From Giardia intestinalis (Eukaryota), in assembly GCA_000002435.2 (NCBI GenBank), contig CM018792.1: DNA of 64,000 nucleotides; one strand, given 5' to 3'. The notes below the pieces were generated by a model. It searched no databases. It had not been told where the DNA came from and saw only the letters and a list, made by a program, of their open reading frames with translations. A program made the translations under genes and the position numbers. Shown in pieces: positions 22,577-39,776 of this stretch (position 1 is its first letter; each line of letters begins with the position of its first letter).

Positions 22577-22831
22577 TTTTATCTTCTAGTCTTGTCTGCC
22601 AAGCTGTAGCCGACTACGCATACTTCGTAATGCGTAGACTATACCTCCTAAATAGCCTTGTCCACTACAGCTGATTCCGATGAACGGATCGTTGCTCCTG
22701 CCACACGGTGCCTTTCCCTATTGTGCACAGCATCCCATGAGCACAAGGCAACACTGAGTAGACGATACAACGGACGTTATCCCTAAGTTAGTGGCCATCA
22801 CCAGGATCCATTGATACATTCACTACCCGAG

Positions 22832-24735: not shown

Positions 24736-24740
24736 TCACT
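24734..24740 (-). promoter_or_regulatory. Giardia-type polyadenylation signal AGTGAAT (AGTRAAY) 6 nt after the unit-1 stop codon, overlapping the unit-0 ATG (AGTGAATG). The same motif recurs at every unit junction and after the last unit (22820..22826)
   Basis: + strand attcact (reverse complement AGTGAAT) at 24734-24740. The identical arrangement occurs at 26630-26636, 28551-28557, 30422-30428, 32226-32232, 34101-34107, 36015-36021, 37932-37938 and 39763-39769 (by periodicity). Consensus AGTPuAAPy is the known Giardia polyA signal. Confidence 0.55.
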
Positions 24741-24747
24741 ACCTAAG

Positions 24748-26631
24748 TCACGCCTTCCCCCTGCACAGGAACCACCAGCAGAGGAAGCCCACGAGGCCCC
24801 CCACGACAGCGACCACGGCGACGGCAATGCCCGCGATGGCCCCCGTGCTGAGGCCGCTCCTATTACTGCCAGAGGACACACAGGAGGCCCCAGCATCATC
24901 AGGGCTGTACCCATCGTTGCACACACAGACAGAGTTATCATCAGTGGAGTTGCTGGGACAGCCATCCACGCATGACTTCCTCCCAGGGCTCACCTTCCCA
25001 CTACTACATGCCTCGCACATGTCATCCCTGTTGGGCTTCTTACTACTGTCACAGGAGGTACAGACAGCGGGGGCCATACCACCATCAGACAGAGCTGCTG
25101 GGGCTGTACACTGGGAGCAGCCCTCTACCCCGACGTATGCCTTAGTATCTACTAGTGTGCCTAATGGGTTGCCACAGGCCAGGACAGACTGATCAGTGTT
25201 GGATGCACCAGGGACTACGAAGTACTTATTATTCTCATTGGCAGCTGTACACTTACCATCGGCTGCTGTCTTGCACATGAGGCTTCCTGGTTCTGTATCA
25301 TACTTATAACACCCACCCATGTACAAGAAGTAGTTGTTAGTGCATTGTGTACATACACCTTGATCACATTGATTATTTGCTTTAGCACTATTACACTTCC
25401 CATCTATAGGATACGTATTAGCTTCTCCACAGTATGAGCAATAATGATGCTCTACACCCTTATCATCAATCACTATTGCATCGCAGGCACCAGAGGTACC
25501 ACCACAAGCCGTGGGGTCTTCACATGTCTTCACACATGTATAGTCATCCCCCGCATCTCCATTGGATTGCTTCCTGTAGTTAGGCTTACATTCAGTGCAC
25601 TTGAACCCATTATTGTTAGAACATAGACTACAGCCTTCACGGCCACCATCTGTTGTACTGTCACAAGCAACGCACTCACCAGTAGAGCCGGGTTGTTTCA
25701 TGAAGAATCCAGGCTTGCATTTAGTGCACTTATCATTGCCAGCTTGAGTGCAGGTGGCACAGTTGGCACCACAGGCTTCACATGTAACCGTACCACCATT
25801 TCCACTATTGTAATATCCGTCGAGGCACTCCGAGCAGGTCGGCTTGGCTCCGTTCTTCTTACATGTTTTACACCCAGGCGTCCCTTTATTAGCTTCTAAA
25901 CTTTCACTATCATCACTACACAATATGCACTTGGTGCTACCATCATTTAGAAAGTGGGATCCGTCAACGTTACTTGTTGCGCACCCATTTGCATCGACAC
26001 AGGTTGTCGTGCCATCGATGGCCGTCTTCACCATCTTCTGACCACCGCAGTTAGTGCACTTCGGCTTCTTGGTAGTCGAATCAACCTCACACTGGGTACA
26101 TGCTTGATCTATCGTGTTGCAAGGAAGGCACTTCCCCGACTCCGGGTCAGCATAAGTGTTTCCAGTGCATCCATTATTATTCACGCATGACTTGTCAGTC
26201 TTCAGGTACTTCCCCTCTGGACACGATGTGCAATGATTCGGACCACTTCCATCGCAGGTCAGACAGGACTGATCACACTTCTCACATGCATCACCCTTCT
26301 TAATGTATCCATCTTGGCAGACAGTGCATGTGGCCGGTCCGCTAGTGCCCGTGTGGGAGCATTCTGAGCATCCAGCGACTCCCATGACCCCGTTTCTATC
26401 TATAGTATCGGAGCACAAGATGCACTCACTACCCTTCTCTGATGGTGTAACTGGGTTCTTGAACAGGCCGTTAGCTGTATTACAAGCAGTGCACAGTCCT
26501 CCCTCAGCCTTTGTGCATATCTCACTGCCAGGGTGTGCATCCTTGTTGTAGCACCCGCCCATGAAGAGGAGTCTCATACTATCACTATCACCCCCACACC
26601 ACATAGCACTATCACTATCACTGTACAGCAT
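24748..26631 (-). CDS. VSP unit 1 (N-module A, middle Y, C-terminal type 1); ATG start but no signal peptide
   Basis: 627-aa intact ORF with ATG at 26629-26631 (cat). Ends FLCWWFLCRGKA, stop at 24748-24750. Confidence 0.8.
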   Translation of the reverse strand: MLYSDSDSAMWCGGDSDSMRLLFMGGCYNKDAHPGSEICTKAEGGLCTACNTANGLFKNPVTPSEKGSECILCSDTIDRNGVMGVAGCSECSHTGTSGPATCTVCQDGYIKKGDACEKCDQSCLTCDGSGPNHCTSCPEGKYLKTDKSCVNNNGCTGNTYADPESGKCLPCNTIDQACTQCEVDSTTKKPKCTNCGGQKMVKTAIDGTTTCVDANGCATSNVDGSHFLNDGSTKCILCSDDSESLEANKGTPGCKTCKKNGAKPTCSECLDGYYNSGNGGTVTCEACGANCATCTQAGNDKCTKCKPGFFMKQPGSTGECVACDSTTDGGREGCSLCSNNNGFKCTECKPNYRKQSNGDAGDDYTCVKTCEDPTACGGTSGACDAIVIDDKGVEHHYCSYCGEANTYPIDGKCNSAKANNQCDQGVCTQCTNNYFLYMGGCYKYDTEPGSLMCKTAADGKCTAANENNKYFVVPGASNTDQSVLACGNPLGTLVDTKAYVGVEGCSQCTAPAALSDGGMAPAVCTSCDSSKKPNRDDMCEACSSGKVSPGRKSCVDGCPSNSTDDNSVCVCNDGYSPDDAGASCVSSGSNRSGLSTGAIAGIAVAVVAVVGGLVGFLCWWFLCRGKA

Positions 26632-26643
26632 TCACTACCTAAG

Positions 26644-28552
26644 TCACGCCTTCCCCCTGCACAGGAACCACCAGCAGAGGAAGCCCACGAGGCCCCCCAC
26701 GACAGCGACCACGGCGACGGCAATGCCCGCGATGGCCCCCGTGCGGAGGCCGCTCCTATTACTGCCAGAGGACACACAGGAGGCCCCAGCATCATCAGGG
26801 CTGTACCCATCGTTGCACACACAGACAGAGTTATCATCAGTGGAGTTGCTGGGACAGCCATCCACGCATGACTTCCTCCCAGGGCTCACCTTCCCACTAC
26901 TACATGCCTCGCACATGTCATCCCTGTTGCAGTGGGAGCATCCCTCAATAGCACATGCGAAGCACCCACTACCATCCCTGTTGGGCTTCTTACTACTGTC
27001 ACAGGAGGTACACACAGCAGCAGTCATGCCACCATCAGATGGAGCTGCTGGGGCTGTACATGCTGAGCAGCCATCCACCCCAACGTATGCCTTAGTATCT
27101 ACTAGTGTGCCTAATGGGTTACCACATGCCAATACAGACTGATTCTGATTGGTTGCCCCTGGGACTACGAAGTACTTATTATTGGCCGCCTCTGTGCATA
27201 TCCCATTGTTACCTGCGGTCTTGCACATGTAGTTGCCTGGTGGACTCTGAGTGCTATAACAGCCACCCATGTACAAGAAGTAGTTGTTAGTGCATTGTGT
27301 ACATACACCTTGATCACATTGATTATTTGCTTTAGCACTATTACACTTCCCATCTATAGGATACGTATTAGCTTCTCCACAGTATGAGCAATAATGATGC
27401 TCTACACCCTTATCATCAATCACTATGGCATCACAGGCACCAGAGGTACCACCACAAGCAGTGTCATCCTCACAGGTCTTCACACATGTATAGTCATCCC
27501 CCGCATCTCCATTGGATTGCTTCCTGTAGTTAGGCTTACATTCAGTGCACTTGAACCCATTATTGTTAGAACATAGACTACAGCCTTCACGGCCACCATC
27601 TGTTGTACTGTCACAAGCAACGCACTCACCAGTAGAGCCGGGTTGTTTCATGAAGAATCCAGGCTTGCATTTAGTGCACTTATCATTGCCAGCTTGAGTG
27701 CAGGTGGCACAGTTGGCACCACAGGCTTCACATGTAACCGTACCACCATTCCACTATGTAATATCCGTCGAGGCACTCCGAGCAGGTCGGCTTGGCTCCG
27801 TTCTTTACATGTTTACACCCGGCGTCCCTTTATTAGCTTCTAAACTTACTCATACAACACATGCTTGGTGCTCCATCATAGAATGGGATCCGTCACGTTA
27901 CTTGCGCAGCCTTTTGCATCGACACAGGTGTCGTGCCATCGATGGCCGTCTCACCATCTTCTGACCACCGCAGTGTGCACTTCGGCTTCTTGGTAGTCGA
28001 ATCAACCTCACACTGGGTACATGCTTGATCTATCGTGTTGCAAGGAAGGCACTTCCCCGACTCCGGGTCAGCATAAGTGTTTCCAGTGCATCCATTATTA
28101 TTCACGCATGACTTGTCAGTCTTCAGGTACTTCCCCTCTGGACACGATGTGCAATGATTCGGACCACTTCCATCGCAGGTCAGACAGGACTGATCACACT
28201 TCTCACATGCATCACCCTTCTTAATGTATCCATCTTGGCAGACAGTGCATGTGGCCGGTCCGCTAGTGCCCGTGTGGGAGCATTCTGAGCATCCAGCGAC
28301 TCCCATGACCCCGTTTCTATCTATAGTATCGGAGCACAAGATGCACTCACTACCCTTCTCTGATGGTGTAACTGGGTTCTTGAACAGGCCGTTAGCTGTA
28401 TTACAAGCAGTGCACAGTCCTCCCTCAGCCTTTGTGCATATCTCACTGCCAGGGTGTGCATCCTTGTTGTAGCACCCGCCCATGAAGAGGAGTCTCATAC
28501 TATCACTATCACCCCCACACCACATAGCACTATCACTATCACTGTACAGCAT
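26644..28552 (-). pseudogene. VSP unit 2, decayed. The N-module A piece (27893..28552) and the middle-Y/C-terminal piece (26644..27651) are separated by a ~250-bp zone with at least 6 small deletions relative to unit 1
   Basis: Alignment of 27740..27960 with 25790..26060 shows multiple 1-3 nt deletions (e.g. accaccatttccactattgtaatatcc vs accaccattccactatgtaatatcc). Also an 18-aa insertion (GSGCFACAIEGCSHCNRD) in the C-terminal module. Confidence 0.7.
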
Positions 28553-28564
28553 TCACTACCTAAG

Positions 28565-30358
28565 TCACGCCTTCCCCCTGCACAGGAACCACCAGCAGAG
28601 GAAGCCCACGAGGCCCCCCACGACAGCGACCACGGCGACGGCAATGCCCGCGATGGCCCCCGTGCGGAGGCCGCTCCTATTACTGCCAGAGGACACACAG
28701 GAGGCCCCAGCATCATCAGGGCTGTACCCATCGTTGCACACACAGACAGAGTTATCATCAGTGGAGTTGCTGGGACAGCCATCCACGCATGACTTCCTCC
28801 CAGGGCTCACCTTCCCACTACTACATGCCTCGCACATGTCATCCCTGTTGGGCTTCTTACTACTGTCACAGGAGGTACAGACAGCGGGGGCCATACCACC
28901 ATCAGACAGAGCTGCTGGGGCTGTACACTGGGAGCAGCCCTCTACCCCCACATATGCCTTAGCAGTATTACCAGTGCCTGTCAGTGTGCCTAGGGGGTTA
29001 CTACAAGCCAACACAGACTGATCAGTGTTGGATGCACCAGGCACTACGAAGTACCTATTGTTGGCTGCTTCTGTGCAGATCCCAGTATTACCTGCTGTCT
29101 TGCACATGAAGCTACCAGGAGCCTTCTGAGTGCTATAACAGCCACCCATGTATAGGAAGTAGTTGTTGGTGCACTGTGTACATACACCATTAGCACAAGT
29201 ATTCCCAGCCTTTTGAGCCTCACTAGCACAGAGACCATCTATAGGAGCTTGTGAACTATCTCCACAATAGGAACAGTAGTGCTTTGTGGTGCCCTGATCA
29301 TCTATTACGATGGCATCACAAGAGCCAGCTGTCCCCCCACAAGCCGTGGGGTCCTCGCAGGTCTTCTCTGTGCATGTATAGTTGTCTGAGGTTCCAGCGG
29401 GCTTCCTGTTAGGCTTGCACTTTGTGCACTTGAGAGGTCCTGTAGACTCCTTTGTGCACTCGGCACACCCATCGATGCCCCCCTGTGCATTATCACAAGC
29501 AACGCACTCACCAGTAGGACCATTGCCTTTCATGAAGAACCCAGGCTTGCATGTATCACACTTATCATTGCCAGTTTGAGTGCAGGTGGCACAGTTAGCA
29601 CCTGGACAAGCGGTGCATGTAACCGTACCACTACCACTACTGTAGTATCCATCGAGGCACTCCGAGCAGGTCGGCGGTGTCGCCGAGTCCTTGGTACACT
29701 TCTTACACCCGGCAATGCCCTGGTCATTTGGATCGGCTCCAGCTGAAACGGTACTGCATAAAACACATGTTTTGTCCTCCTTCATAAATAGGGCCTCGTC
29801 AGCGCCTTTACATCCAGCGTAGTCTTTTGTCACGCACGTCGAGGTCCCATCAAGGGCCGTCCTGGGGATCTTACTGTTATCACAAGCTGTGCACTTCGGC
29901 TTCTTGGTAGTCGAATCAACCTCACACTGGGTACATGCTTGATCTATCGTGTTGCAAGGAAGGCACTTCCCCGACTCCGGGTCAGCATAAGTGTTTCCAG
30001 TGCATCCATTATTATTCACGCATGCATTATCCTTCAGGAACGTATTTCCCTTACAAGAGGTACACTGGGTCGCCGACGTCTCACAGGTCAGGCAAGAGTC
30101 GTTGCACTTCTCACATGCCCCGTTACTATTTAGAAAGTATCCCTCTGTGCAGGTATCACATGTAGCTGCTCCTGCATTCTGTGGTGCCGTACATGTGGCG
30201 CAGTTCTCCACTCCCTTTGTCGCGCCATCTCCCACCGTGTCCCAGCACAGGATGCACTCCCTTCCCTTCTCTGGTGTTGCAGCCGGGTTCTGGAATATGT
30301 ACTGGTTATCTACCTTACAAGCAGTGCACACTCCACTACTGACCTTTGTGCATATCAC
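28565..30358 (-). CDS. VSP unit 3 (N-module B, middle X, C-terminal type 1). No ATG-initiated ORF: the junction ATG at 30421-30423 gives MLYNV* and an expanded TATCAC repeat
   Basis: 597-aa ORF from GTG: ICTKVSSGVCTACKVDNQ...; ends FLCRGKA. Confidence 0.75.
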   Translation of the reverse strand: MICTKVSSGVCTACKVDNQYIFQNPAATPEKGRECILCWDTVGDGATKGVENCATCTAPQNAGAATCDTCTEGYFLNSNGACEKCNDSCLTCETSATQCTSCKGNTFLKDNACVNNNGCTGNTYADPESGKCLPCNTIDQACTQCEVDSTTKKPKCTACDNSKIPRTALDGTSTCVTKDYAGCKGADEALFMKEDKTCVLCSTVSAGADPNDQGIAGCKKCTKDSATPPTCSECLDGYYSSGSGTVTCTACPGANCATCTQTGNDKCDTCKPGFFMKGNGPTGECVACDNAQGGIDGCAECTKESTGPLKCTKCKPNRKPAGTSDNYTCTEKTCEDPTACGGTAGSCDAIVIDDQGTTKHYCSYCGDSSQAPIDGLCASEAQKAGNTCANGVCTQCTNNYFLYMGGCYSTQKAPGSFMCKTAGNTGICTEAANNRYFVVPGASNTDQSVLACSNPLGTLTGTGNTAKAYVGVEGCSQCTAPAALSDGGMAPAVCTSCDSSKKPNRDDMCEACSSGKVSPGRKSCVDGCPSNSTDDNSVCVCNDGYSPDDAGASCVSSGSNRSGLRTGAIAGIAVAVVAVVGGLVGFLCWWFLCRGKA

Positions 30359-30420
30359 ACTCCACTATCACCCTATCACCCTCTATCACCCACTATCACC
30401 CATTATCACACATTGTACAG
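30352..30420. repeat. Variable-copy microrepeat (core TATCAC on the + strand, GTGATA on the coding strand) at unit junctions. About 5 copies at this junction versus 2 at 32164..32239 and 39701..39776. The same core forms the MLYSDSDSAMWCGGDSDS N-terminal codons of the A-type units
   Basis: 30356..30410: ccactatcac cctatcac cctctatcac ccactatcac ccattatcac a. The A-type junction (e.g. 24681..24732) reads catactatcactatcacccccacaccacatagcactatcactatcactgtacag. Confidence 0.7.
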
Positions 30421-30435
30421 CATTCACTACCTAAG

Positions 30436-32163
30436 TCACGCCTTCCCTCTACACACGAACCACCAGCAGAGGAACCCTATGAGACCCCCCACGACGACGA
30501 CCACAGCGACGGAGATCCCCGCGATGGCCCCCGTGGAGAGCCCGCCCCTGTTGGCGCCAGAGGACACACACTTACCACCCTCTAGACTGTATCCATCAAC
30601 ACACTCCCCACATATATTATCCATCACACAGCTCTTGCAGTTGGTGTCAGAGCATGTCACACACCCAGTGCCATCCTTGTTGGGCACCTTACTATTGTCA
30701 CAGGAGGTACACACAGCAGCAGTCATGCCAGCTGTTGTTAGAGCTGCTGGGGCTGTACACTGGGAGCAGCCCTCTACCCCCACATATGCCTTAGCAGTAT
30801 TACCAGTGCCTGTCAGTGTGCCAAGGGGGTTACTACAAGCCAACACAGACTGATCAGTGTTGGATGCACCAGGCACTACGAAGTACCTATTGTTGGCTGC
30901 TTCTGTGCAGATCCCAGTATTACCTGCTGTCTTGCACATGAAGCTACCAGGAGCCTTCTGAGTGCTATAACAGCCACCCATGTATAGGAAGTAGTTGTTG
31001 GTGCACTGTGTACATACACCATTAGCACAAGTATTCCCAGCCTTTTGAGCCTCACTAGCACAGAGACCATCTATAGGAGCTTGTGAACTATCTCCACAAT
31101 AGGAACAGTAGTGCTTTGTGGTGCCCTGATCATCTATTACGATGGCATCACAAGAGCCAGCTGTCCCCCCACAAGCCGTGGGGTCCTCGCAGGTCTTCTC
31201 TGTGCATGTATAGTTGTCTGAGGTTCCAGCGGGCTTCCTGTTAGGCTTGCACTTTGTGCACTTGAGAGGTCCTGTAGACTCCTTTGTGCACTCGGCACAC
31301 CCATCGATGCCCCCCTGTGCATTATCACAAGCAACGCACTCACCAGTAGGACCATTGCCTTTCATGAAGAACCCAGGCTTGCATGTATCACACTTATCAT
31401 TGCCAGTTTGAGTGCAGGTGGCACAGTTAGCACCTGGACAAGCGGTGCATGTAACCGTACCACTACCACTACTGTAGTATCCATCGAGGCACTCCGAGCA
31501 GGTCGGCGGTGTCGCCGAGTCCTTGGTACACTTCTTACACCCGGCAATGCCCTGGTAATTTGGATCGGCTCCAGCTGAAACGGTACTGCATAAAACACAT
31601 GTTTTGTCCTCCTTCATAAATAGGGCCTCGTCAGCGCCTTTACATCCAGCGTAGTCTTTTGTCACGCACGTCGAGGTCCCATCAAGGGCCGTCCTGGGGA
31701 TCTTACTGTTATCACAAGCTGTGCACTTCGGCTTCTTGGTAGTCGAATCAACCTCACACTGGGTACATGCTTGATCTATCGTGTTGCAAGGAAGGCACTT
31801 CCCCGACTCCGGGTCAGCATAAGTGTTTCCAGTGCATCCATTATTATTCACGCATGCATTATCCTTCAGGAACGTATTTCCCTTACAAGAGGTACACTGG
31901 GTCGCCGACGTCTCACAGGTCAGGCAAGAGTCGTTGCACTTCTCACATGCCCCGTTACTATTTAGAAAGTATCCCTCTGTGCAGGTATCACATGTAGCTG
32001 CTCCTGCATTCTGTGGTGCCGTACATGTGGCGCAGTTCTCCACTCCCTTTGTCGCGCCATCTCCCACCGTGTCCCAGCACAGGATGCACTCCCTTCCCTT
32101 CTCTGGTGTTGCAGCCGGGTTCTGGAATATGTACTGGTTATCTACCTTACAAGCAGTGCACAC
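30436..32163 (-). CDS. VSP unit 4 (N-module B, middle X, C-terminal type 2, ending FVCRGKA). No ATG-initiated ORF: the junction ATG gives MLYNV*
   Basis: ORF opens at GTG: (V)CTACKVDNQYIFQNPAATPEKGRECILCWDT... A 76-nt junction (32164..32239) separates it from unit 5. Confidence 0.75.
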   Translation of the reverse strand: MCTACKVDNQYIFQNPAATPEKGRECILCWDTVGDGATKGVENCATCTAPQNAGAATCDTCTEGYFLNSNGACEKCNDSCLTCETSATQCTSCKGNTFLKDNACVNNNGCTGNTYADPESGKCLPCNTIDQACTQCEVDSTTKKPKCTACDNSKIPRTALDGTSTCVTKDYAGCKGADEALFMKEDKTCVLCSTVSAGADPNYQGIAGCKKCTKDSATPPTCSECLDGYYSSGSGTVTCTACPGANCATCTQTGNDKCDTCKPGFFMKGNGPTGECVACDNAQGGIDGCAECTKESTGPLKCTKCKPNRKPAGTSDNYTCTEKTCEDPTACGGTAGSCDAIVIDDQGTTKHYCSYCGDSSQAPIDGLCASEAQKAGNTCANGVCTQCTNNYFLYMGGCYSTQKAPGSFMCKTAGNTGICTEAANNRYFVVPGASNTDQSVLACSNPLGTLTGTGNTAKAYVGVEGCSQCTAPAALTTAGMTAAVCTSCDNSKVPNKDGTGCVTCSDTNCKSCVMDNICGECVDGYSLEGGKCVSSGANRGGLSTGAIAGISVAVVVVVGGLIGFLCWWFVCRGKA

Positions 32164-32239
32164 TCCACTACTGGCCTGTGTGCATATCTCACTCCACTAT
32201 CACCCATTATCACACATTGTACAGCATTCACTACCTAAG

Positions 32240-34102
32240 TCACGCCTTCCCCCTGCAGATGAACCACCAGCAGAGGAACCCTATGAGACCCCCCACGACG
32301 ACGACCACAGCGACGGAGATCCCCGCGATGGCCCCCGTGGAGAGCCCGCCCCTGTTGGCGCCAGAGGACACACACTTACCACCCTCTAGACTGTATCCAT
32401 CAACACACTCCCCACATATATTATCCATCACACAGCTCTTGCAGTTGGTGTCAGAGCATGTCACACACCCAGTGCCATCCTTGTTGGGCACCTTACTATT
32501 GTCACAGGAGGTACACACAGCAGCAGTCATGCCAGCTGTTGTTAGAGCTGTTGGTGCTGTACACCGGGAGCAGCCATATACTCCTACATATGCCTTAGCG
32601 GTACTATCAGTGCCTACTAGTGTGCCTAGGGGGTTACTACAAGCCAACACAGACTGATCAGTGTTGGATGCACCAGGCACTACGAAGTACCTATTGTTGG
32701 CTGCTTCTGTGCAGATCCCAGTATTACCTGCTGTCTTGCACATGAAGCTACCAGGAGCCTTCTGAGTGCTATAACAGCCACCCATGTATAGGAAGTAGTT
32801 GTTGGTGCACTGTGTACATACACCATTAGCACAAGTATTCCCAGCCTTTTGAGCCTCACTAGCACAGAGACCATCTATAGGAGCTTGTGAACTATCTCCA
32901 CAATAGGAACAGTAGTGCTTTGTGGTGCCCTGATCATCTATTACGATGGCATCACAAGAGCCAGCTGTCCCCCCACAAGCCGTGGGGTCCTCGCAGGTCT
33001 TCTCTGTGCATGTATAGTTGTCTGAGGTTCCAGCGGGCTTCCTGTTAGGCTTGCACTTTGTGCACTTGAGAGGTCCTGTAGACTCCTTTGTGCACTCGGC
33101 ACACCCATCGATGCCCCCCTGTGCATTATCACAAGCAACGCACTCACCAGTAGGACCATTGCCTTTCATGAAGAACCCAGGCTTGCATGTATCACACTTA
33201 TCATTGCCAGTTTGAGTGCAGGTGGCACAGTTAGCACCTGGACAAGCGGTGCATGTAACCGTACCACTACCACTACTGTAGTATCCATCGAGGCACTCCG
33301 AGCAGGTCGGCGGTGTCGCCGAGTCCTTGGTACACTTCTTACACCCGGCAATGCCCTGGTAATTTGGATCGGCTCCAGCTGAAACGGTACTGCATAAAAC
33401 ACATGTTTTGTCCTCCTTCATAAATAGGGCCTCGTCAGCGCCTTTACATCCAGCGTAGTCTTTTGTCACGCACGTCGAGGTCCCATCAAGGGCCGTCCTG
33501 GGGATCTTACTGTTATCACAAGCTGTGCACTTCGGCTTCTTGGTAGTCGAATCAACCTCACACTGGGTACATGCTTGATCTATCGTGTTGCAAGGAAGGC
33601 ACTTCCCCGACTCCGGGTCAGCATAAGTGTTTCCAGTGCATCCATTATTATTCACGCATGACTTGTCAGTCTTCAGGTACTTCCCCTCTGGACACGATGT
33701 GCAATGATTCGGACCACTTCCATCGCAGGTCAGACAGGACTGATCACACTTCTCACATGCATCACCCTTCTTAATGTATCCATCTTGGCAGACAGTGCAT
33801 GTGGCCGGTCCGCTAGTGCCCGTGTGGGAGCATTCTGAGCATCCAGCGACTCCCATGACCCCGTTTCTATCTATAGTATCGGAGCACAAGATGCACTCAC
33901 TACCCTTCTCTGATGGTGTAACTGGGTTCTTGAACAGGCCGTTAGCTGTATTACAAGCAGTGCACAGTCCTCCCTCAGCCTTTGTGCATATCTCACTGCC
34001 AGGGTGTGCATCCTTGTTGTAGCACCCGCCCATGAAGAGGAGTCTCATACTATCACTATCACCCCCACACCACATAGCACTATCACTATCACTGTACAGC
34101 AT
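32240..34102 (-). CDS. VSP unit 5 (N-module A, middle X, C-terminal type 2, ending FICRGKA); no signal peptide
   Basis: 620-aa intact ORF. The C-terminal module MTAAVCTSCDNSKVPNKDGTGCVTCSDTNCKSCVMDNICGECVDGYSLEGGKCVSSGANRGG... is shared with unit 4 and resembles the head gene. Confidence 0.8.
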   Translation of the reverse strand: MLYSDSDSAMWCGGDSDSMRLLFMGGCYNKDAHPGSEICTKAEGGLCTACNTANGLFKNPVTPSEKGSECILCSDTIDRNGVMGVAGCSECSHTGTSGPATCTVCQDGYIKKGDACEKCDQSCLTCDGSGPNHCTSCPEGKYLKTDKSCVNNNGCTGNTYADPESGKCLPCNTIDQACTQCEVDSTTKKPKCTACDNSKIPRTALDGTSTCVTKDYAGCKGADEALFMKEDKTCVLCSTVSAGADPNYQGIAGCKKCTKDSATPPTCSECLDGYYSSGSGTVTCTACPGANCATCTQTGNDKCDTCKPGFFMKGNGPTGECVACDNAQGGIDGCAECTKESTGPLKCTKCKPNRKPAGTSDNYTCTEKTCEDPTACGGTAGSCDAIVIDDQGTTKHYCSYCGDSSQAPIDGLCASEAQKAGNTCANGVCTQCTNNYFLYMGGCYSTQKAPGSFMCKTAGNTGICTEAANNRYFVVPGASNTDQSVLACSNPLGTLVGTDSTAKAYVGVYGCSRCTAPTALTTAGMTAAVCTSCDNSKVPNKDGTGCVTCSDTNCKSCVMDNICGECVDGYSLEGGKCVSSGANRGGLSTGAIAGISVAVVVVVGGLIGFLCWWFICRGKA

Positions 34103-34114
34103 TCACTACCTAAG

Positions 34115-36016
34115 TCACGCCTTCCCCCTGCACAGGAACCACCAGCAGAGGAAGCCCACGAGGCCCCCCACGACAGCGACCACGGCGACGGCAATGCCCG
34201 CGATGGCCCCCGTGCGGAGGCCGCTCCTATTACTGCCAGAGGACACACAGGAGGCCCCAGCATCATCAGGGCTGTACCCATCGTTGCACACACAGACAGA
34301 GTTATCATCAGTGGAGTTGCTGGGACAGCCATCCACGCATGACTTCCTCCCAGGGCTCACCTTCCCACTACTACATGCCTCGCACATGTCATCCCTGTTG
34401 GGCTTCTTACTACTGTCACAGGAGGTACAGACAGCGGGGGCCATACCACCATCAGACAGAGCTGCTGGGGCTGTACACTGGGAGCAGCCCTCTACCCCCA
34501 CATATGCCTTAGCAGTATTACCAGTGCCTGTCAGTGTGCCAAGGGGGTTACTACAAGCCAACACAGACTGATCAGTGTTGGATGCACCAGGCACTACGAA
34601 GTACCTATTGTTGGCTGCTTCTGTGCAGATCCCAGTATTACCTGCTGTCTTGCACATGAAGCTACCAGGAGCCTTCTGAGTGCTATAACAGCCACCCATG
34701 TATAGGAAGTAGTTGTTGGTGCACTGTGTACATACACCATTAGCACAAGTATTCCCAGCCTTTTGAGCCTCACTAGCACAGAGACCATCTATAGGAGCTT
34801 GTGAACTATCTCCACAATAGGAACAGTAGTGCTTTGTGGTGCCCTGATCATCTATTACGATGGCATCACAAGAGCCAGCTGTCCCCCCACAAGCCGTGGG
34901 GTCCTCGCAGGTCTTCTCTGTGCATGTATAGTTGTCTGAGGTTCCAGCGGGCTTCCTGTTAGGCTTGCACTTTGTGCACTTGAGAGGTCCTGTAGACTCC
35001 TTTGTGCACTCGGCACACCCATCGATGCCCCCCTGTGCATTATCACAAGCAACGCACTCACCAGTAGGACCATTGCCTTTCATGAAGAACCCAGGCTTGC
35101 ATGTATCACACTTATCATTGCCAGTTTGAGTGCAGGTGGCACAGTTAGCACCTGGACAAGCGGTGCATGTAACCGTACCACTACCACTACTGTAGTATCC
35201 ATCGAGGCACTCCGAGCAGGTCGGCGGTGTCGCCGAGTCCTTGGTACACTTCTTACACCCGGCAATGCCCTGGTAATTTGGATCGGCTCCAGCTGAAACG
35301 GTACTGCATAAAACACATGTTTTGTCCTCCTTCATAAATAGGGCCTCGTCAGCGCCTTTACATCCAGCGTAGTCTTTTGTCACGCACGTCGAGGTCCCAT
35401 CAAGGGCCGTCCTGGGGATCTTACTGTTATCACAAGCTGTGCACTTCGGCTTCTTGGTAGTCGAATCAACCTCACACTGGGTACATGCTTGATCTATCGT
35501 GTTGCAAGGAAGGCACTTCCCCGACTCCGGGTCAGCATAAGTGTTTCCAGTGCATCCATTATTATTCACGCATGACTTGTCAGTCTTCAGGTACTTCCCC
35601 TCTGGACACGATGTGCAATGATTCGGACCACTTCCATCGCAGGTCAGACAGGACTGATCACACTTCTCACATGCATCACCCTTCTTAATGTATCCATCTT
35701 GGCAGACAGTGCATGTGGCCGGTCCGCTAGTGCCCGTGTGGGAGCATTCTGAGCATCCAGCGACTCCCATGACCCCGTTTCTATCTATAGTATCGGAGCA
35801 CAAGATGCACTCACTACCCTTCTCTGATGGTGTAACTGGGTTCTTGAACAGGCCGTTAGCTGTATTACAAGCAGTGCACAGTCCTCCCTCAGCCTTTGTG
35901 CATATCTCACTGCCAGGGTGTGCATCCTTGTTGTAGCACCCGCCCATGAAGAGGAGTCTCATACTATCACTATCACCCCCACACCACATAGCACTATCAC
36001 TATCACTGTACAGCAT
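34115..36016 (-). CDS. VSP unit 6 (N-module A, middle X, C-terminal type 1); ATG start but no signal peptide
   Basis: 633-aa intact ORF. N-terminal 190 aa identical to units 1, 2 and 5; middle identical to units 0, 3, 4, 5 and 7. Confidence 0.8.
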   Translation of the reverse strand: MLYSDSDSAMWCGGDSDSMRLLFMGGCYNKDAHPGSEICTKAEGGLCTACNTANGLFKNPVTPSEKGSECILCSDTIDRNGVMGVAGCSECSHTGTSGPATCTVCQDGYIKKGDACEKCDQSCLTCDGSGPNHCTSCPEGKYLKTDKSCVNNNGCTGNTYADPESGKCLPCNTIDQACTQCEVDSTTKKPKCTACDNSKIPRTALDGTSTCVTKDYAGCKGADEALFMKEDKTCVLCSTVSAGADPNYQGIAGCKKCTKDSATPPTCSECLDGYYSSGSGTVTCTACPGANCATCTQTGNDKCDTCKPGFFMKGNGPTGECVACDNAQGGIDGCAECTKESTGPLKCTKCKPNRKPAGTSDNYTCTEKTCEDPTACGGTAGSCDAIVIDDQGTTKHYCSYCGDSSQAPIDGLCASEAQKAGNTCANGVCTQCTNNYFLYMGGCYSTQKAPGSFMCKTAGNTGICTEAANNRYFVVPGASNTDQSVLACSNPLGTLTGTGNTAKAYVGVEGCSQCTAPAALSDGGMAPAVCTSCDSSKKPNRDDMCEACSSGKVSPGRKSCVDGCPSNSTDDNSVCVCNDGYSPDDAGASCVSSGSNRSGLRTGAIAGIAVAVVAVVGGLVGFLCWWFLCRGKA

Positions 36017-36028
36017 TCACTACCTAAG

Positions 36029-37933
36029 TCACGCCTTCCCCCTGCACAGGAACCACCAGCAGAGGAAGCCCACGAGGCCCCCCACGACAGCGACCACGGC
36101 GACGGCAATGCCCGCGATGGCCCCCGTGCTGAGGCCGCTCCTATTACTGCCAGAGGACACACAGGAGGCCCCAGCATCATCAGGGCTGTACCCATCGTTG
36201 CACACACAGACAGAGTTATCATCAGTGGAGTTGCTGGGACAGCCATCCACGCATGACTTCCTCCCAGGGCTCACCTTCCCACTACTACATGCCTCGCACA
36301 TGTCATCCCTGTTGGGCTTCTTACTACTGTCACAGGAGGTACAGACAGCGGGGGCCATACCACCATCAGACAGAGCTGCTGGGGCTGTACACTGGGAGCA
36401 GCCCTCTACCCCCACATATGCCTTAGCAGTATTACCAGTGCCTGTCAGTGTGCCAAGGGGGTTACTACAAGCCAACACAGACTGATCAGTGTTGGATGCA
36501 CCAGGCACTACGAAGTACCTATTGTTGGCTGCTTCTGTGCAGATCCCAGTATTACCTGCTGTCTTGCACATGAAGCTACCAGGAGCCTTCTGAGTGCTAT
36601 AACAGCCACCCATGTATAGGAAGTAGTTGTTGGTGCACTGTGTACATACACCATTAGCACAAGTATTCCCAGCCTTTTGAGCCTCACTAGCACAGAGACC
36701 ATCTATAGGAGCTTGTGAACTATCTCCACAATAGGAACAGTAGTGCTTTGTGGTGCCCTGATCATCTATTACGATGGCATCACAAGAGCCAGCTGTCCCC
36801 CCACAAGCCGTGGGGTCCTCGCAGGTCTTCTCTGTGCATGTATAGTTGTCTGAGGTTCCAGCGGGCTTCCTGTTAGGCTTGCACTTTGTGCACTTGAGAG
36901 GTCCTGTAGACTCCTTTGTGCACTCGGCACACCCATCGATGCCCCCCTGTGCATTATCACAAGCAACGCACTCACCAGTAGGACCATTGCCTTTCATGAA
37001 GAACCCAGGCTTGCATGTATCACACTTATCATTGCCAGTTTGAGTGCAGGTGGCACAGTTAGCACCTGGACAAGCGGTGCATGTAACCGTACCACTACCA
37101 CTACTGTAGTATCCATCGAGGCACTCCGAGCAGGTCGGCGGTGTCGCCGAGTCCTTGGTACACTTCTTACACCCGGCAATGCCCTGGTCATTTGGATCGG
37201 CTCCAGCTGAAACGGTACTGCATAAAACACATGTTTTGTCCTCCTTCATAAATAGGGCCTCGTCAGCGCCTTTACATCCAGCGTAGTCTTTTGTCACGCA
37301 CGTCGAGGTCCCATCAAGGGCCGTCCTGGGGATCTTACTGTTATCACAAGCTGTGCACTTCGGCTTCTTGGTAGTCGAATCAACCTCACACTGGGTACAT
37401 GCTTGATCTATCGTGTTGCAAGGAAGGCACTTCCCCGACTCCGGGTCAGCATAAGTGTTTCCAGTGCATCCATTATTATTCACGCATGACTTGTCAGTCT
37501 TCAGGTACTTCCCCTCTGGGCACGATGTACAATGATTCTGACCACTTCCATCGCAGGTCAGACAGGACGGATCACACTGCTTGCATTCGTTATTCTCTTT
37601 ATAGTACCCTGCTTGGCACTCAGTGCACGTGGCAGGTCCTGGACTATTAGTTGGTTCCGTGCACTTGAGGCAGTTAGCCACCCCCGTATATCCATCTGCT
37701 CCCTTGGTATCCCAGCAGAGGATGCACTCCCTTCCCTTCTCTGATGGTGTAGCAGGGTTCTTGAACAGGCCGTTAGCTGTATTACACTCAGTGCACACTC
37801 CATTACTGGCTGCTGTGCATATCTCACTGCCAGGGTGTGCATCCTTGTTGTAGCACCCGCCCATGAAGAGGAGTCTCATACTATCACTATCACCCCCACA
37901 CCACATAGCACTATCACTATCACTGTACAGCAT
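36029..37933 (-). CDS. VSP unit 7 (N-module A', middle X, C-terminal type 1); ATG start but no signal peptide
   Basis: MLYSDSDSAMWCGGDSDSMRLLFMGGCYNKDAHPGSEICTAASNGVCTEC... ; ends FLCRGKA; intact 634-aa ORF. Confidence 0.8.
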   Translation of the reverse strand: MLYSDSDSAMWCGGDSDSMRLLFMGGCYNKDAHPGSEICTAASNGVCTECNTANGLFKNPATPSEKGRECILCWDTKGADGYTGVANCLKCTEPTNSPGPATCTECQAGYYKENNECKQCDPSCLTCDGSGQNHCTSCPEGKYLKTDKSCVNNNGCTGNTYADPESGKCLPCNTIDQACTQCEVDSTTKKPKCTACDNSKIPRTALDGTSTCVTKDYAGCKGADEALFMKEDKTCVLCSTVSAGADPNDQGIAGCKKCTKDSATPPTCSECLDGYYSSGSGTVTCTACPGANCATCTQTGNDKCDTCKPGFFMKGNGPTGECVACDNAQGGIDGCAECTKESTGPLKCTKCKPNRKPAGTSDNYTCTEKTCEDPTACGGTAGSCDAIVIDDQGTTKHYCSYCGDSSQAPIDGLCASEAQKAGNTCANGVCTQCTNNYFLYMGGCYSTQKAPGSFMCKTAGNTGICTEAANNRYFVVPGASNTDQSVLACSNPLGTLTGTGNTAKAYVGVEGCSQCTAPAALSDGGMAPAVCTSCDSSKKPNRDDMCEACSSGKVSPGRKSCVDGCPSNSTDDNSVCVCNDGYSPDDAGASCVSSGSNRSGLSTGAIAGIAVAVVAVVGGLVGFLCWWFLCRGKA

Positions 37934-37945
37934 TCACTACCTAAG

Positions 37946-39700
37946 TCACGCCTTCCCCCTGCACAGGAACCACCAGCAGAGGAAGCCCACGAGGCCCCCC
38001 ACGACAGCGACCACGGCGACGGCAATGCCCGCGATGGCCCCCGTGCGGAGGCCGCTCCTATTACTGCCAGAGGACACACAGGAGGCCCCAGCATCATCAG
38101 GGCTGTACCCATCGTTGCACACACAGACAGAGTTATCATCAGTGGAGTTGCTGGGACAGCCATCCACGCATGACTTCCTCCCAGGGCTCACCTTCCCACT
38201 ACTACATGCCTCGCACATGTCATCCCTGTTGGGCTTCTTACTACTGTCACAGGAGGTACAGACAGCGGGGGCCATACCACCATCAGACAGAGCTGCTGGG
38301 GCTGTACACTGGGAGCAGCCCTCTACCCCGACGTATGCCTTAGTATCTACTAGTGTGCCTAATGGGTTGCCACAGGCCAGGACAGACTGATCAGTGTTGG
38401 ATGCACCAGGGACTACGAAGTACTTATTATTCTCATTGGCAGCTGTACACTTACCATCGGCTGCTGTCTTGCACATGAGGCTTCCTGGTTCTGTATCATA
38501 CTTATAACACCCACCCATGTACAAGAAGTAGTTGTTAGTGCATTGTGTACATACACCTTGATCACATTGATTATTTGCTTTAGCACTATTACACTTCCCA
38601 TCTATAGGATACGTATTAGCTTCTCCACAGTATGAGCAATAATGATGCTCTACACCCTTATCATCAATCACTATTGCATCGCAGGCACCAGAGGTACCAC
38701 CACAAGCAGTGTCATCCTCACAGGTCTTCACACATGTATAGTCATCCCCCGCATCTCCATTGGATTGCTTCCTGTAGTTAGGCTTACATTCAGTGCATTT
38801 GAATCCACCAGTGTTAGAGCATGCACTGCACCCTTCGCGGCCCTTATTGTCCACACTGTCGCATGAGACACACTCACCAGGGGCGCCACTCTTCAGGAAG
38901 AACCCGGGCTTGCAGGTTTGGCACTGGTTAGCATTAGCGCTGTTGCAGGTGGCACAGTTGGTCCCACAGGGCTTGCAGGTGGTATCAAAGTAGAATCCAG
39001 GGAGGCATTCTGAGCAGATTGGAGGCTGTGCCAGGTCGGTTTTCTTACACCCACTGCACTCAGCAATTCCCTTGTTGGGGGCGGTTCCTCCGGTAGCGCT
39101 GCATAGTATGCAACTGTTCTCATCCTGGCTTAGGAAGTGTGTTCCCACTGTGTTTAGCGCTGCACATCCCGCCTTATCCACGCACTCTGTTGATCCATCG
39201 ACATACCCTTTAAGGAGAGGCTTGGCTCCCCCACAGGCGGTGCACTTCGGCTTCTGTAGCTTTGCATCGTACGTGCAAGCAGTGCACTCTGGTATGCCCC
39301 CCTGATCTGCTCCAGCGTTACAAGCTATGCACTTGCCGGTGCTTGGGTCGGGGTACTTATCTCCATTACAACTGCTAGCATCTACACAATTATTCCCATC
39401 GAGATACTTCTCGCCCGCACAGAGGGTGCACTTAGTTGCGCCCTCACCGCTGCAAGTCAGACAAGCTTCATTACATTTGACACATGCACCGTTACCATCT
39501 TTATAGTACCCTGCTTGACACTCTGTACACGTGGCAGGTCCTGCATTCCCCGGTGCTGTACACTTGAGGCAGTTGGCCACTCCTTTGTTCTCATTCGCTC
39601 CCGTGGCATCATGACAGAGGATGCACTCCCCACCAGGGGTCACCTTCTCTGCCTTGTTCTGGAATATGTACTGACTATCTGTATTACACTCAGTGCACAC
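37946..39700 (-). CDS. VSP unit 8 (N-module type C, middle Y, C-terminal type 1). 5'-truncated: no signal peptide; the ORF opens with GTG, and the unit's junction ATG is closed after 5 codons (MLYNV*)
   Basis: Begins (V)CTECNTDSQYIFQNKAEK... immediately after the junction repeat. Ends FLCWWFLCRGKA. Confidence 0.75.
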   Translation of the reverse strand: MCTECNTDSQYIFQNKAEKVTPGGECILCHDATGANENKGVANCLKCTAPGNAGPATCTECQAGYYKDGNGACVKCNEACLTCSGEGATKCTLCAGEKYLDGNNCVDASSCNGDKYPDPSTGKCIACNAGADQGGIPECTACTYDAKLQKPKCTACGGAKPLLKGYVDGSTECVDKAGCAALNTVGTHFLSQDENSCILCSATGGTAPNKGIAECSGCKKTDLAQPPICSECLPGFYFDTTCKPCGTNCATCNSANANQCQTCKPGFFLKSGAPGECVSCDSVDNKGREGCSACSNTGGFKCTECKPNYRKQSNGDAGDDYTCVKTCEDDTACGGTSGACDAIVIDDKGVEHHYCSYCGEANTYPIDGKCNSAKANNQCDQGVCTQCTNNYFLYMGGCYKYDTEPGSLMCKTAADGKCTAANENNKYFVVPGASNTDQSVLACGNPLGTLVDTKAYVGVEGCSQCTAPAALSDGGMAPAVCTSCDSSKKPNRDDMCEACSSGKVSPGRKSCVDGCPSNSTDDNSVCVCNDGYSPDDAGASCVSSGSNRSGLRTGAIAGIAVAVVAVVGGLVGFLCWWFLCRGKA

Positions 39701-39776
39701 TCCACTACTGGCCTGTGTGCATATCTCACTCCACTATCACCCATTATCACACATTGTACAGCATTCACTACCTAAG

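Follow-up and report, generated by a model that had tools for sequence, protein, structure and literature searches.

A linear VSP pseudogene array in Giardia intestinalis WB-C6 and the probable origin of its mosaic copies by recombination among misaligned repeats

In a window of 64,000 nucleotides, taken from the 2020 PacBio reference of Giardia intestinalis WB-C6 (contig CM018792.1), VSP-like gene copies combine the same near-identical segments in different ways, and the question is how such a mosaic arose and whether it concerns expressed antigens. An earlier note on this DNA had proposed that segmental gene conversion shuffles epitope-bearing N-terminal, middle and C-terminal modules independently among the units. 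The explanation that we favor, with high confidence, is a linear VSP pseudogene array that has become mosaic by recombination among misaligned repeats, for which we infer the specific mechanism.

A pseudogene array between two housekeeping genes

Ten head-to-tail VSP bodies occupy the minus strand at 22.8-42.0 kb, and these are one copy called the head and nine 5'-truncated units, u8 to u0 (Table 1). The limits 24748-39700 given previously were too narrow, because u0 and the head also belong to the array. All ten bodies terminate in ...GFLCWWF(L/V/I)CRGKA, so that each has a transmembrane segment and a CRGKA tail at its C-terminus, and PF03302 (VSP; gathering cut-off 31.4) is matched by u6, the head and u8 with 148.6, 150.9 and 128 bits, respectively. 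The array sits chromosome-internally between two housekeeping genes, whose proteins exactly match KAE8304521.1 and KAE8304522.1 of WB-C6; because these accessions are consecutive, zero proteins are annotated across the 19.5-kb array. The locus is of a kind known in the Giardia WB reference genome, a linear pseudo-VSP array. Linear vsp arrays without Inr, vsp recombination and the cassette hypothesis have been described by Adam et al. (2010; PMC2996952), and 208 pseudo-VSPs in arrays by Xu et al. (2020; PMC7000408); the published arrays have two or more head-to-tail bodies and spacers of 60 bp on average and up to 241 bp (Adam et al., 2010; Xu et al., 2020). Here an apparent ATG follows each stop codon after 12 nt, and recognizable VSP sequence resumes after about 60-125 nt. 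To judge by length alone, one unit is probably vsp213 of PMC2996952 (GL50803_114122; 645 aa; linear array; no Inr).

The P15 and DH draft assemblies have one VSP at the syntenic site, and this lone VSP may represent an array that was collapsed in these 454-era assemblies. The DH orthologue of the head begins with MFQLIPLF, and homology of WB starts only 8 nt past the DH ATG; upstream of the head lies unrelated, GC-rich DNA. The head has a complete ectodomain, a transmembrane segment and an FICRGKA tail, and lacks both ATG and Inr.

The extended VSP polyadenylation signal (consensus ACUUAGRUAGURAAYRY; bioRxiv 10.1101/2022.03.07.483299) was found 10 times against 0.17 expected, once after each VSP body (22816, 24732, 26628, 28549, 30420, 32224, 34099, 36013, 37930 and 39761; a variant in u0), and overlaps the last base of every body's stop codon. 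Each of the nine copies is fused directly to the extended signal and GT-rich 3' flank of the prior copy. The units open in 3'-flank sequence, with VSP homology from the FMGGCY motif or later; the copies start about 125-140 codons into the VSP, and the apparent ATG of a unit lies within the polyadenylation signal of the preceding copy. By inspection, no signal-peptide-like hydrophobic stretch was present at the unit N-termini, and the Inr YAATGTT (Adam, 2010) had no match at 22.8-42.1 kb. Lacking signal peptide and Inr, and with the ATG inside the prior polyadenylation signal, the units are pseudogenes. In u3, u4 and u8 no long ORF is initiated by ATG, the u2 frame is broken in the 2020 assembly, and in u0 the loss of 1 nt in a C5 run at 23263 produces a stop. 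Judged from these sequence features, the array is probably transcriptionally silent. The phrase "epitope-bearing segments" should accordingly not be taken literally, since no annotated protein corresponds to the units either, and their pseudogene features make direct selection on their epitopes impossible.

Table 1. Features of the array in the window (offsets are counted within a unit)
Feature	Position	Strand	Description
Head pseudo-VSP	39777..41966	-	signal-peptide-like start FLLIPLFVVSALAVTC; ORF translation and upstream DNA
Unit u8	37946..39776	-	short junction, N-terminal type C, own middle to offset ~1070, Y, L-type C-terminus
Unit u7	36029..37945	-	long junction, A', X, L(S)
Unit u6	34115..36028	-	long junction, A, X, L(R)
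Unit u5	32240..34114	-	long junction, A, X to offset 1487, then I-type C-terminus (FICRGKA)
Unit u4	30436..32239	-	short junction, B, X, V-type C-terminus
Unit u3	28565..30435	-	short junction (GT-rich stretch 28 nt longer), B, X, L(R)
Unit u2	26644..28564	-	long junction, A, Y variant, L-type C-terminus
Unit u1	24748..26643	-	long junction, A, Y, L(S)
Terminal unit u0	22816..24747	-	long junction, A', X, L-type C-terminus
V/I-type patch of u0	22881-22966	-	transmembrane region, 60-86 nt
VSP-specific extended polyadenylation signal	36013..36029	-	ACTTAGGTAGTGAATGC; one of ten copies
Shared block CVNNNGC...KKPKCT, u6 copy	35439..35605	-	unit offsets ~424-590
Longest near-identical tract, copy 1	34542..37519	-	u7+427 to u6+1487
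Longest near-identical tract, copy 2	32628-35605		u6+424 to u5+1487
2,559-nt tract	36149..38707	-	u8+1070 to u7+1797
2,559-nt tract, repeat 13.2 kb away	22952-25509		u1+1135 to u0+1796
A-type patch of the head	41452..41645	-	near-identical to the A N-terminal module of u1, u2, u5 and u6
Head part encoding 277 aa	39897..40727	-	identical to intact VSP KAE8304683.1
Micro-deletion patch of u2	27750..27974	-	~21 deletions of 1-3 nt vs u1

Sharp-edged blocks, old types and recent copying

In the nucleotide alignment of the nine units, blocks with 0 differences in 60 columns abut blocks with 20-55 differences in 60, and the uniform divergence that had been named beforehand as the refuting outcome was not seen. 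Tracts with 0-2 differences over 0.3-3 kb adjoin tracts that are 23-44% divergent, and exact tracts within the unit frame reach 1,487 nt (u5/u6), 1,117 nt (u4/u6) and 1,058 nt (u0/u6). Types differ by about 23% (A/A'), 37% (A/B) and 44% (A/C) in the N-terminal region, by about 36% (X/Y) in the middle, and by about 27% (L vs V/I type) in the C-terminal region. The groupings of units are incompatible between segments. Chance could be excluded as the cause. PHI was 0.043, with permutations averaging 0.269 (z = -78; as low in 0 of 2000 permutations), and a GENECONV-like test gave, for 35 of the 36 unit pairs, a run of concordant polymorphic sites unmatched in 1000 permutations of site order; the four-gamete Rmin was 29, a value probably inflated by poorly aligned stretches. 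The alignment, these tests and the tracts crossing unit boundaries described below strongly support recombination over uniform divergence, and the mosaic of near-identical blocks is confirmed. The view that equally old units never recombined, with identical blocks held by extreme purifying selection and variable blocks evolving fast, can draw on the conservation of the CVNNNGC...KKPKCT block and of the transmembrane/CRGKA tail in many VSPs, but the incompatible partitions and the complete lack of synonymous divergence inside tracts refute it: identity there extends over 1-3 kb including synonymous sites and the non-coding junction while neighboring blocks show dS from 0.5 to saturation.

The earlier assignment of N-terminal types was right for every unit (A in u1, u2, u5 and u6; A' in u0 and u7; B in u3 and u4; C in u8), as was the boundary at KKPKCT, which falls at unit offset 590/591. 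The CVNNNGC...KKPKCT block is identical in eight of the nine units, and at either edge of it apparent breakpoints recur where N-terminal modules meet middle modules. The division of the middle into X and Y needs modification at two units: u8 has Y only from offset ~1070, its first middle half being a third type, and u2 differs from u1 at several points, among them a stretch of its own type from offset ~1326 to 1636. At the C-terminus there are more than the two versions claimed, with variable breakpoints (offsets ~1487, 1500-1531, 1571, 1636 and 1797); u2 carries an extra CXXC unit of 54 nt (18 aa), and the final 136 nt of u5 are identical to the head. The A-type patch of the head, 195 nt long, contains exact blocks of 37, 50 and 98 nt, and around it the head is only 50-70% identical to u1, u2, u5 and u6.

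Between types, dS ranges from 0.5 to saturated and dN/dS from 0.16 to 0.5, indicating that the types are old coding lineages. Within types, divergence is at most 0.2%, compared with about 4% in the flanking DNA between WB and the A2 isolate DH, which makes the copying recent. At the amino-acid level, exact tracts are shared with the intact VSPs KAE8304683.1 (277 aa), KAE8304460.1 (up to 186 aa) and KAE8303325.1 (51 aa); the long ones, including one of 167 aa, range over 167-277 aa, and for most other VSP matches exact sharing is just about 15-30 aa. KAE8304460.1 is encoded on the array's chromosome and KAE8304683.1 on another one of 4.02 Mb. These protein sequences suggest that modules have been exchanged with intact antigen genes on an evolutionary timescale. 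Segmental gene conversion has been described in VSP and pseudo-VSP genes (PMC7641422), and in assemblage A gene-conversion tracts have a median of about 3.3 kb and are VSP-enriched (PMC12669663). A stronger proposal is that the array is an active partner in DNA-level antigen diversification within clonal assemblage-AI lineages, creating new expressible VSPs at infection-relevant rates through mitotic recombination with intact Inr-bearing VSPs (e.g., KAE8304460.1 and KAE8304683.1). We consider this improbable; if true, it would place a genetic layer on top of the epigenetic/RNAi-type switching of Giardia.

Linkage across unit boundaries and the origin of the mosaic

The identity tracts continue past the stop codon, the polyadenylation signal and the junction and enter the next unit; the longest that cross a boundary have 2,978 nt (with 2 mismatches), 2,559 nt and 2,051 nt. 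A V/I-type C-terminus is followed by a short junction and a B or C type in 3/3 cases, and an L-type C-terminus by a long junction and A or A' in 6/6. Because tracts cross unit boundaries in this manner, the C-module of one unit and the N-module of the next form one linked block, and the modules are not shuffled independently within units as had been supposed.

Two units can be composed from their neighbors. The 5' part of u5 joined to the 3' part of u7 gives u6 with 1 residual difference (u5 alone leaves 141 and u7 alone 84; the crossover lies between offsets 755 and 1488), and the 5' part of u3 joined to the 3' part of u5 gives u4 (crossover at offsets 1494-1501); the polarity of both is that expected of duplication-generating unequal exchange. 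In structure u6 and u4 are thus single-crossover hybrids of neighbors, with only presumptive roles of parent and recombinant: u5, for instance, can also be written as u6 5' plus u4 3' with 18 residual differences. Unequal crossing-over fits the large-scale pattern at least as well as gene conversion, whereas the short internal patches in the transmembrane region of u0 and in the head need gene conversion. The interpretation in the earlier note is thus partly right: segmental gene conversion, to which it had attributed the whole mosaic, is required for the short patches and explains the large-scale pattern no better than unequal crossing-over does.

We propose the following course. One VSP body has kept its 5' signal-peptide region and lost its ATG and Inr, with nine truncated copies following it. 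Homologous recombination among misaligned repeats probably produced the mosaic: unequal crossing-over, or an equivalent template switch, in shared blocks would expand the array and place hybrid units between both parents, and later gene conversion would add patches, the shortest tracts having about 60-200 nt and the longest about 2.5 kb. Exchange would take place at identical or similar types, such as the CVNNNGC...KKPKCT block, the X body and the SVLAC..NPLGTL..AYVGV region, and the array has its module pool in common with intact VSP genes, both on its own chromosome and elsewhere.

The alternative that survives best, though we regard it as doubtful, is that short-tract segmental gene conversion independently shuffles N-terminal, middle and C-terminal epitope modules among expressed genes, driven by selection for antigenic novelty. 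It could account for the patches with two breakpoints (u0, the head and the variant stretch of u2), for the same modules in intact VSPs, and for the VSP-enriched conversion of assemblage A. Against it, the largest tracts span unit boundaries, the linkage between the C-terminal type of one unit and the N-terminal type of the next is complete, two units are simple single-crossover hybrids of neighbors, and the units have no signal peptide or Inr, start in the prior polyadenylation signal and are annotated as non-coding.

A much less probable alternative is that the mosaic is an assembly artifact, i.e., a chimeric consensus or mis-ordered or mis-counted repeats resulting from assembling and gap-filling near-identical copies. 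The 2020 assembly was made with PBJelly, which closed gaps, and Quiver, from 200x PacBio coverage and an optical map. Signs of local trouble are the micro-deletions in u2, the homopolymer deletion in u0, a possible conflict of neighbor order with the 2007 annotation, and the short-read contigs, all of which end at the array edge, so that none enters it. The u2 patch is probably a consensus or gap-fill error rather than biology; the Sanger-era protein XP_001703902.1 (645 aa) is an intact u2, unbroken there. Four distinct module junctions occur independently in Sanger-era proteins, namely A|Y plus the 18-aa insert (XP_001703902.1), A'|X (XP_001705183.1), X|I-type (XP_001705182.1) and Y|X (UPI000017B5CF, with a close relative, KAE8304460.1, in the 2020 annotation). 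These junctions, together with the coverage, the optical map and the divergent blocks of 300-900 nt that serve as unambiguous read anchors, argue against an artifact. The order and number of the units come from a single PacBio assembly, which has local defects in u2 and u0. The adjacent 2007 accessions XP_001705182.1 (3' part of u5) and XP_001705183.1 (5' part of u0) hint at a different order of neighbors.

Significance and comparison with known systems

Linear pseudo-VSP arrays, their recombination and the idea of a "cassette reservoir" have already been published (Adam et al., 2010; Xu et al., 2020), and mosaicism is thus not new; the unit-by-unit breakpoint map, the cross-boundary linkage and the neighbor-hybrid pattern were worked out here and not found in these papers. 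The locus is a clean and well-delimited example of repertoire remodeling of Giardia surface antigens, with ten copies at a site, flanked by two housekeeping genes, that seems to hold a single copy in related isolates. The growth of the array, probably through unequal exchange with patchy conversion, is recent, and the "modules" span gene boundaries and recur in intact VSPs. The locus is also a practical long-read target for recombination rates in pseudo-VSP arrays, and it flags local quality problems of the reference assembly. The current picture of antigenic variation in Giardia is unchanged; VSP switching is described as epigenetic in PMC2996952.

The array resembles the linear arrays of Giardia WB (PMC2996952, PMC7000408) in its head-to-tail bodies with very short spacers, in downstream members without Inr, signal peptide and proper start codon, and in pairs of members that are 100% identical over long stretches; those arrays have been proposed to recombine and to act as a "cassette reservoir", and for the present one a reservoir role is what we infer. 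WB arrays often start with a typical VSP that has non-coding DNA upstream and an Inr, unlike the head here, which lacks ATG and Inr; the word "often" means that this feature is not strictly defining. The pseudo-VSP arrays of Giardia muris (PMC7641422) likewise consist of VSP copies without signal peptides and are essentially untranscribed, as the array here probably is, and there is phylogenetic evidence that they recombine, or undergo segmental gene conversion, with intact VSPs. They are telomere-adjacent, unlike the chromosome-internal WB array, and VSPs of Giardia muris end with GCRGK and those of WB with CRGKA.

The VSG pseudogene arrays of Trypanosoma brucei (e.g., PMC13233330) similarly keep silent antigen copies, many of them truncated, in a large archive from which mosaic genes are built by segmental recombination. 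In Trypanosoma brucei, experiments have shown that mosaics are formed into a defined expression site in the course of an infection. Giardia is not known to have an expression site or to undergo real-time donation. Borrelia vlsE has tandem, promoterless silent vls cassettes, truncated at 5' and 3' ends, beside one complete gene, with segmental conversion as one-way transfer into this single expressed gene. The feature of a silent cassette archive, an array of promoterless and truncated antigen gene copies, is present in the Giardia array; unlike in Borrelia, the adjacent head has no start codon, and exchange occurs mainly among the cassettes themselves.

Block mosaicism and tracts that cross unit boundaries

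The ten minus-strand VSP bodies of the array, a head followed by nine 5'-truncated units (u8 to u0), are mosaics of near-identical blocks, and this pattern is real and far above chance. When u6 was compared with the other units, long stretches had 0 differences per 60 alignment columns and other parts 20–55, and the longest exact tract inside the unit frame reached 1,487 nt. The PHI statistic was 0.043; permutations averaged 0.269 ± 0.003, with none of 2000 reaching so low a value, and for 35 of 36 unit pairs the run of concordant sites was never equalled in 1000 permutations; the four-gamete Rmin was 29, a value probably inflated by poorly aligned parts. Divergence inside a module type is at most 0.2%. 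Between types, dS ranges from 0.5 to saturated with dN/dS of 0.16–0.5, indicating that the module types are old protein-coding VSP lineages. The mosaic described in the earlier note was thus borne out, and its N-terminal types (A, A', B and C) and its module boundary at KKPKCT were right. The assignments of the middle (X or Y) and of the C-terminus (L type, FLCRGKA; V/I type, F(V/I)CRGKA) held in part and required refinement: in u8 the Y type begins only at about offset 1070 (offsets are counted in nt from a unit's 5' end), the u2 middle is a variant of Y, the C-terminal breakpoints are several (offsets 1487, 1500–1531, 1571, 1636 and 1797), and u0 bears a V/I-type patch of 60–86 nt in its transmembrane region.

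The mosaic had been read as segmental gene conversion, and this interpretation is partly supported; it overlooked that the tracts of identity ignore unit boundaries. We traced them with an exact-match chaining script, because a megablast self-comparison had hidden the longest ones. The tract from u7+427 to u6+1487 is repeated from u6+424 to u5+1487 (2,978 nt, 2 mismatches); that from u8+1070 to u7+1797 recurs 13.2 kb away from u1+1135 to u0+1796 (2,559 nt); and a tract of 2,051 nt is found three times (u6+455 to u5+591, u3+412 to u2+591 and u7+458 to u6+591). Since such tracts cross unit boundaries, the C-terminal type of a unit predicts both the junction that follows (the stretch between one stop and the next VSP sequence) and the N-terminal type of the next unit. 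A V/I-type C-terminus is followed by a short junction and B or C (3/3), and an L-type C-terminus by a long junction and A or A' (6/6); the linkage corresponds to 1 in 84 arrangements (hypergeometric), a figure that is descriptive only, as the copies are non-independent.

Two units are hybrids of their neighbours. Apart from 1 residual difference, the u6 sequence is that of u5 in its 5' part and that of u7 in its 3' part, the single-parent differences being 141 and 84; u4 likewise follows u3 in its 5' part and u5 in its 3' part, the crossover falling at offsets 1494–1501. Both take the 5' part from the downstream and the 3' part from the upstream neighbour, and this polarity is that expected of the product of an unequal exchange adding a unit. 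Gene conversion is nevertheless required by the short two-breakpoint patches in u0 and in the head, and a long conversion tract is the best reading of the distant 2.56-kb tract, whose end lies within the terminal unit. For assemblage A, work published in 2025 estimated the median conversion tract at ~3.3 kb, with enrichment in VSPs (PMC12669663).

Anatomy of the array and its expression signals

The array is flanked on one side by an acyltransferase gene (KAE8304521.1) and on the other by GL50803_00111911 (KAE8304522.1), each matching a WB clone C6 protein exactly. Exact WB clone C6 proteins of the 2020 chromosome-scale assembly were found for four flanking ORFs, and these two are both on its 2,761,001-bp contig; their accessions are consecutive, and therefore the 19.5 kb between them is without an annotated protein. 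The unit ORFs were absent as exact entries from the protein collection (0/4 ORFs looked up). The order and copy number of the ten bodies are those given by a single PacBio reference assembly.

All ten bodies end in CRGKA and match Pfam PF03302. Each is followed by ACTTAGGTAGTGAATGC (10 occurrences, 0.17 expected), which is the VSP-specific extended polyadenylation signal ACUUAGRUAGURAAYRY (bioRxiv 10.1101/2022.03.07.483299). For six unit ORFs, the opening ATG falls within the preceding signal of this kind, and the "MLYSDSDSAMWCGGDSDS" that comes after it is translated GT-rich 3' flank; unit VSP sequence restarts at or after the FMGGCY motif, about 125–140 codons into a normal VSP. The units u3, u4 and u8 have the shorter junction, and there the frame from the ATG ends after five codons. 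The head has a signal-peptide-like stretch and lacks an ATG, and a motif search for the initiator element YAATGTT gave 0 occurrences in the whole array. The array bodies are pseudo-VSPs under the criteria set out by Xu et al. (2020).

The unit junctions also contain GT-rich GTGATA/GGTGATAG micro-repeats of varying length, the GT-rich stretch being 28 nt longer at the u3 junction than at that of u4; they resemble 3'-flank sequence prone to slippage, at the joint of the duplication. An antisense ORF (MKRSLILSLSPPHH...) of 175–193 aa recurs across each long-type junction, most likely as a by-product of VSP coding-strand composition. Plus-strand GC skew is uniformly -0.13 to -0.17 over 24000–40000 and about 0 in the flanks, the negative values arising because the VSP coding strand is G-rich. 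Tandem Repeats Finder, whose limit is 500 nt against an array period of ~1.9 kb, reported no repeats, and Rfam gave no RNA family across 21–46 kb.

Coordinates of the array, its flanks and the features discussed in the text
Feature	Position	Strand	Remark
Acyltransferase, KAE8304521.1	21416-22576		flank of array
Nine units, u8 to u0	39776 down to 22816	-	head-to-tail VSP bodies
1-nt loss in C5 run of u0	23263	-	creates u0 stop
Micro-deletion patch in u2	27750-27974	-	~21 deletions of 1-3 nt in 225 nt vs u1
Antisense ORF	24665-25192, 26561-27142, 28482-29021, 34032-34571, 35946-36485, 37863-38390	+	spans long-type junctions
GT-rich micro-repeats (examples)	35965-36012, 30359-30420		in unit junctions
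Head	39777-41966	-	VSP body
A-type patch in head	41452-41645	-	~195 nt
GC-rich segment	42075-45034		~3 kb, 54-64% GC, between head and 5'-end relic
GL50803_00111911, KAE8304522.1	42165-43493		other flank of array
Degenerate relic of VSP 5' end (MLLSVF...)	45035-45296	-	frameshifted; homologous to first 262 nt of P15 VSP ORF

Reliability of the assembly and comparison with other isolates

The assembly was made with PacBio RS II, HGAP3, PBJelly and Quiver. The micro-deletions in u2 and the single-nucleotide loss in u0 disrupt frames that Sanger-era proteins or sister units preserve, XP_001703902.1 being an intact u2, and are probably consensus or gap-fill errors, possibly from PBJelly gap filling. 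Logan contigs of five runs (SRR3602122, SRR3602127, SRR2642196, SRR17933279 and SRR3178007) that carry the identical acyltransferase all stop at the conserved VSP 3' end, 60–290 bp past this gene (5/5 runs), so that none of these runs allowed the array to be assembled from short reads. The mosaicism itself is no artefact, because four module junctions are found independently in Sanger-era proteins (A|Y with insert, A'|X, X|I-type and Y|X). Of two adjacent 2007 accessions, XP_001705182.1 (X and FICRGKA) matches the 3' part of u5 and XP_001705183.1 (A' and X) the 5' part of u0; if they were neighbours on an old contig, their order, which is missing from the window, hints at a second related array or an assembly disagreement.

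One VSP of 738 aa lies in the syntenic interval of P15 (assemblage E), which is bounded by a 1722-aa gene and the acyltransferase, and in DH (AII) one VSP of 848 aa adjoins the acyltransferase. The DH VSP resembles the WB head at its 5' end (86%) and u2 in its 3' part, the extra CXXC unit included; it starts with MFQLIPLF, and WB homology first appears 8 nt past that ATG. Flank divergence (about 4% between WB and DH, 13–16% between WB and P15) far exceeds the divergence within tracts, and on this basis, together with the one VSP in DH and P15, the array expansion looks recent and lineage-specific, with the proviso that 454-era drafts can collapse arrays.

On the DH contig (AHGT01000028.1, 1–10383), the genes 5' of the VSP (radial spoke 3 and others) differ from those of WB and P15, and the VSP 5' end is the exact point at which synteny is lost, owing either to a genuine rearrangement or to chimerism of the draft contig. 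In WB, the relic of a VSP 5' end adjoins the 1722-aa gene, and the GC-rich segment separating it from the head looks like an insertion or rearrangement that severed the ancestral VSP start. GL50803_00111911, which lies within this segment, has three or more paralogues elsewhere in the genome and is without a Pfam match; neither of the two ORFs that the segment carries upstream of the head matched Pfam.

Array modules in intact VSPs and relation to published arrays

Three intact annotated WB VSPs are partly made of array modules. The 689-aa KAE8304460.1, on the same chromosome as the array and with a proper MFQLIPLF signal peptide, has 167 aa identical to u1 (the shared block and the first half of Y) followed by 186 aa identical to the X/L sequence of u3, u4, u6 and u7; it also has head-like patches, and exact tracts of 12 aa or more make up 71% of the protein. 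KAE8304683.1 (4.02-Mb chromosome) has a 277-aa exact tract in common with the head, and KAE8303325.1 has patches of 46, 28 and 26 aa in common with the head and a 51-aa X patch with the u3/u7-specific variant. Most remaining VSP matches have only about 15–30 aa in common with the array. The search covered, at the protein level, the VSPs returned by a homology search, and it overturned the statement that no intact VSP shares array tracts, which had been based on HSPs with an identity of 85% or more across 50 aa or more. These exact tracts suggest that modules have moved between the array and intact genes; we consider it improbable that arrays of this kind give rise to new expressible VSPs at infection-relevant rates.

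Vsp "linear arrays" with short spacers and downstream members without Inr were already reported from this genome by Adam et al. (2010), who noted array pairs with "long regions of 100% identity", gave statistical support for recombination among vsp genes and suggested that the members "serve as cassettes for recombination" (PMC2996952). Identity with the published vsp57-65 array was rejected, as the protein lengths do not match; vsp212-214 is a better fit, on length only. Arrays are not mentioned in the Be-2/WB comparison paper. Since linear arrays and their recombination were already published, the feature type is known and the mosaic finding is a correct rediscovery: the observation is confirmed. 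The details added here to what was known of these arrays, none of which we found in the published accounts consulted, are the breakpoint map, the linkage between neighbouring units across their boundaries, the two neighbour hybrids, which point to unequal exchange, and the named intact VSPs carrying array modules.
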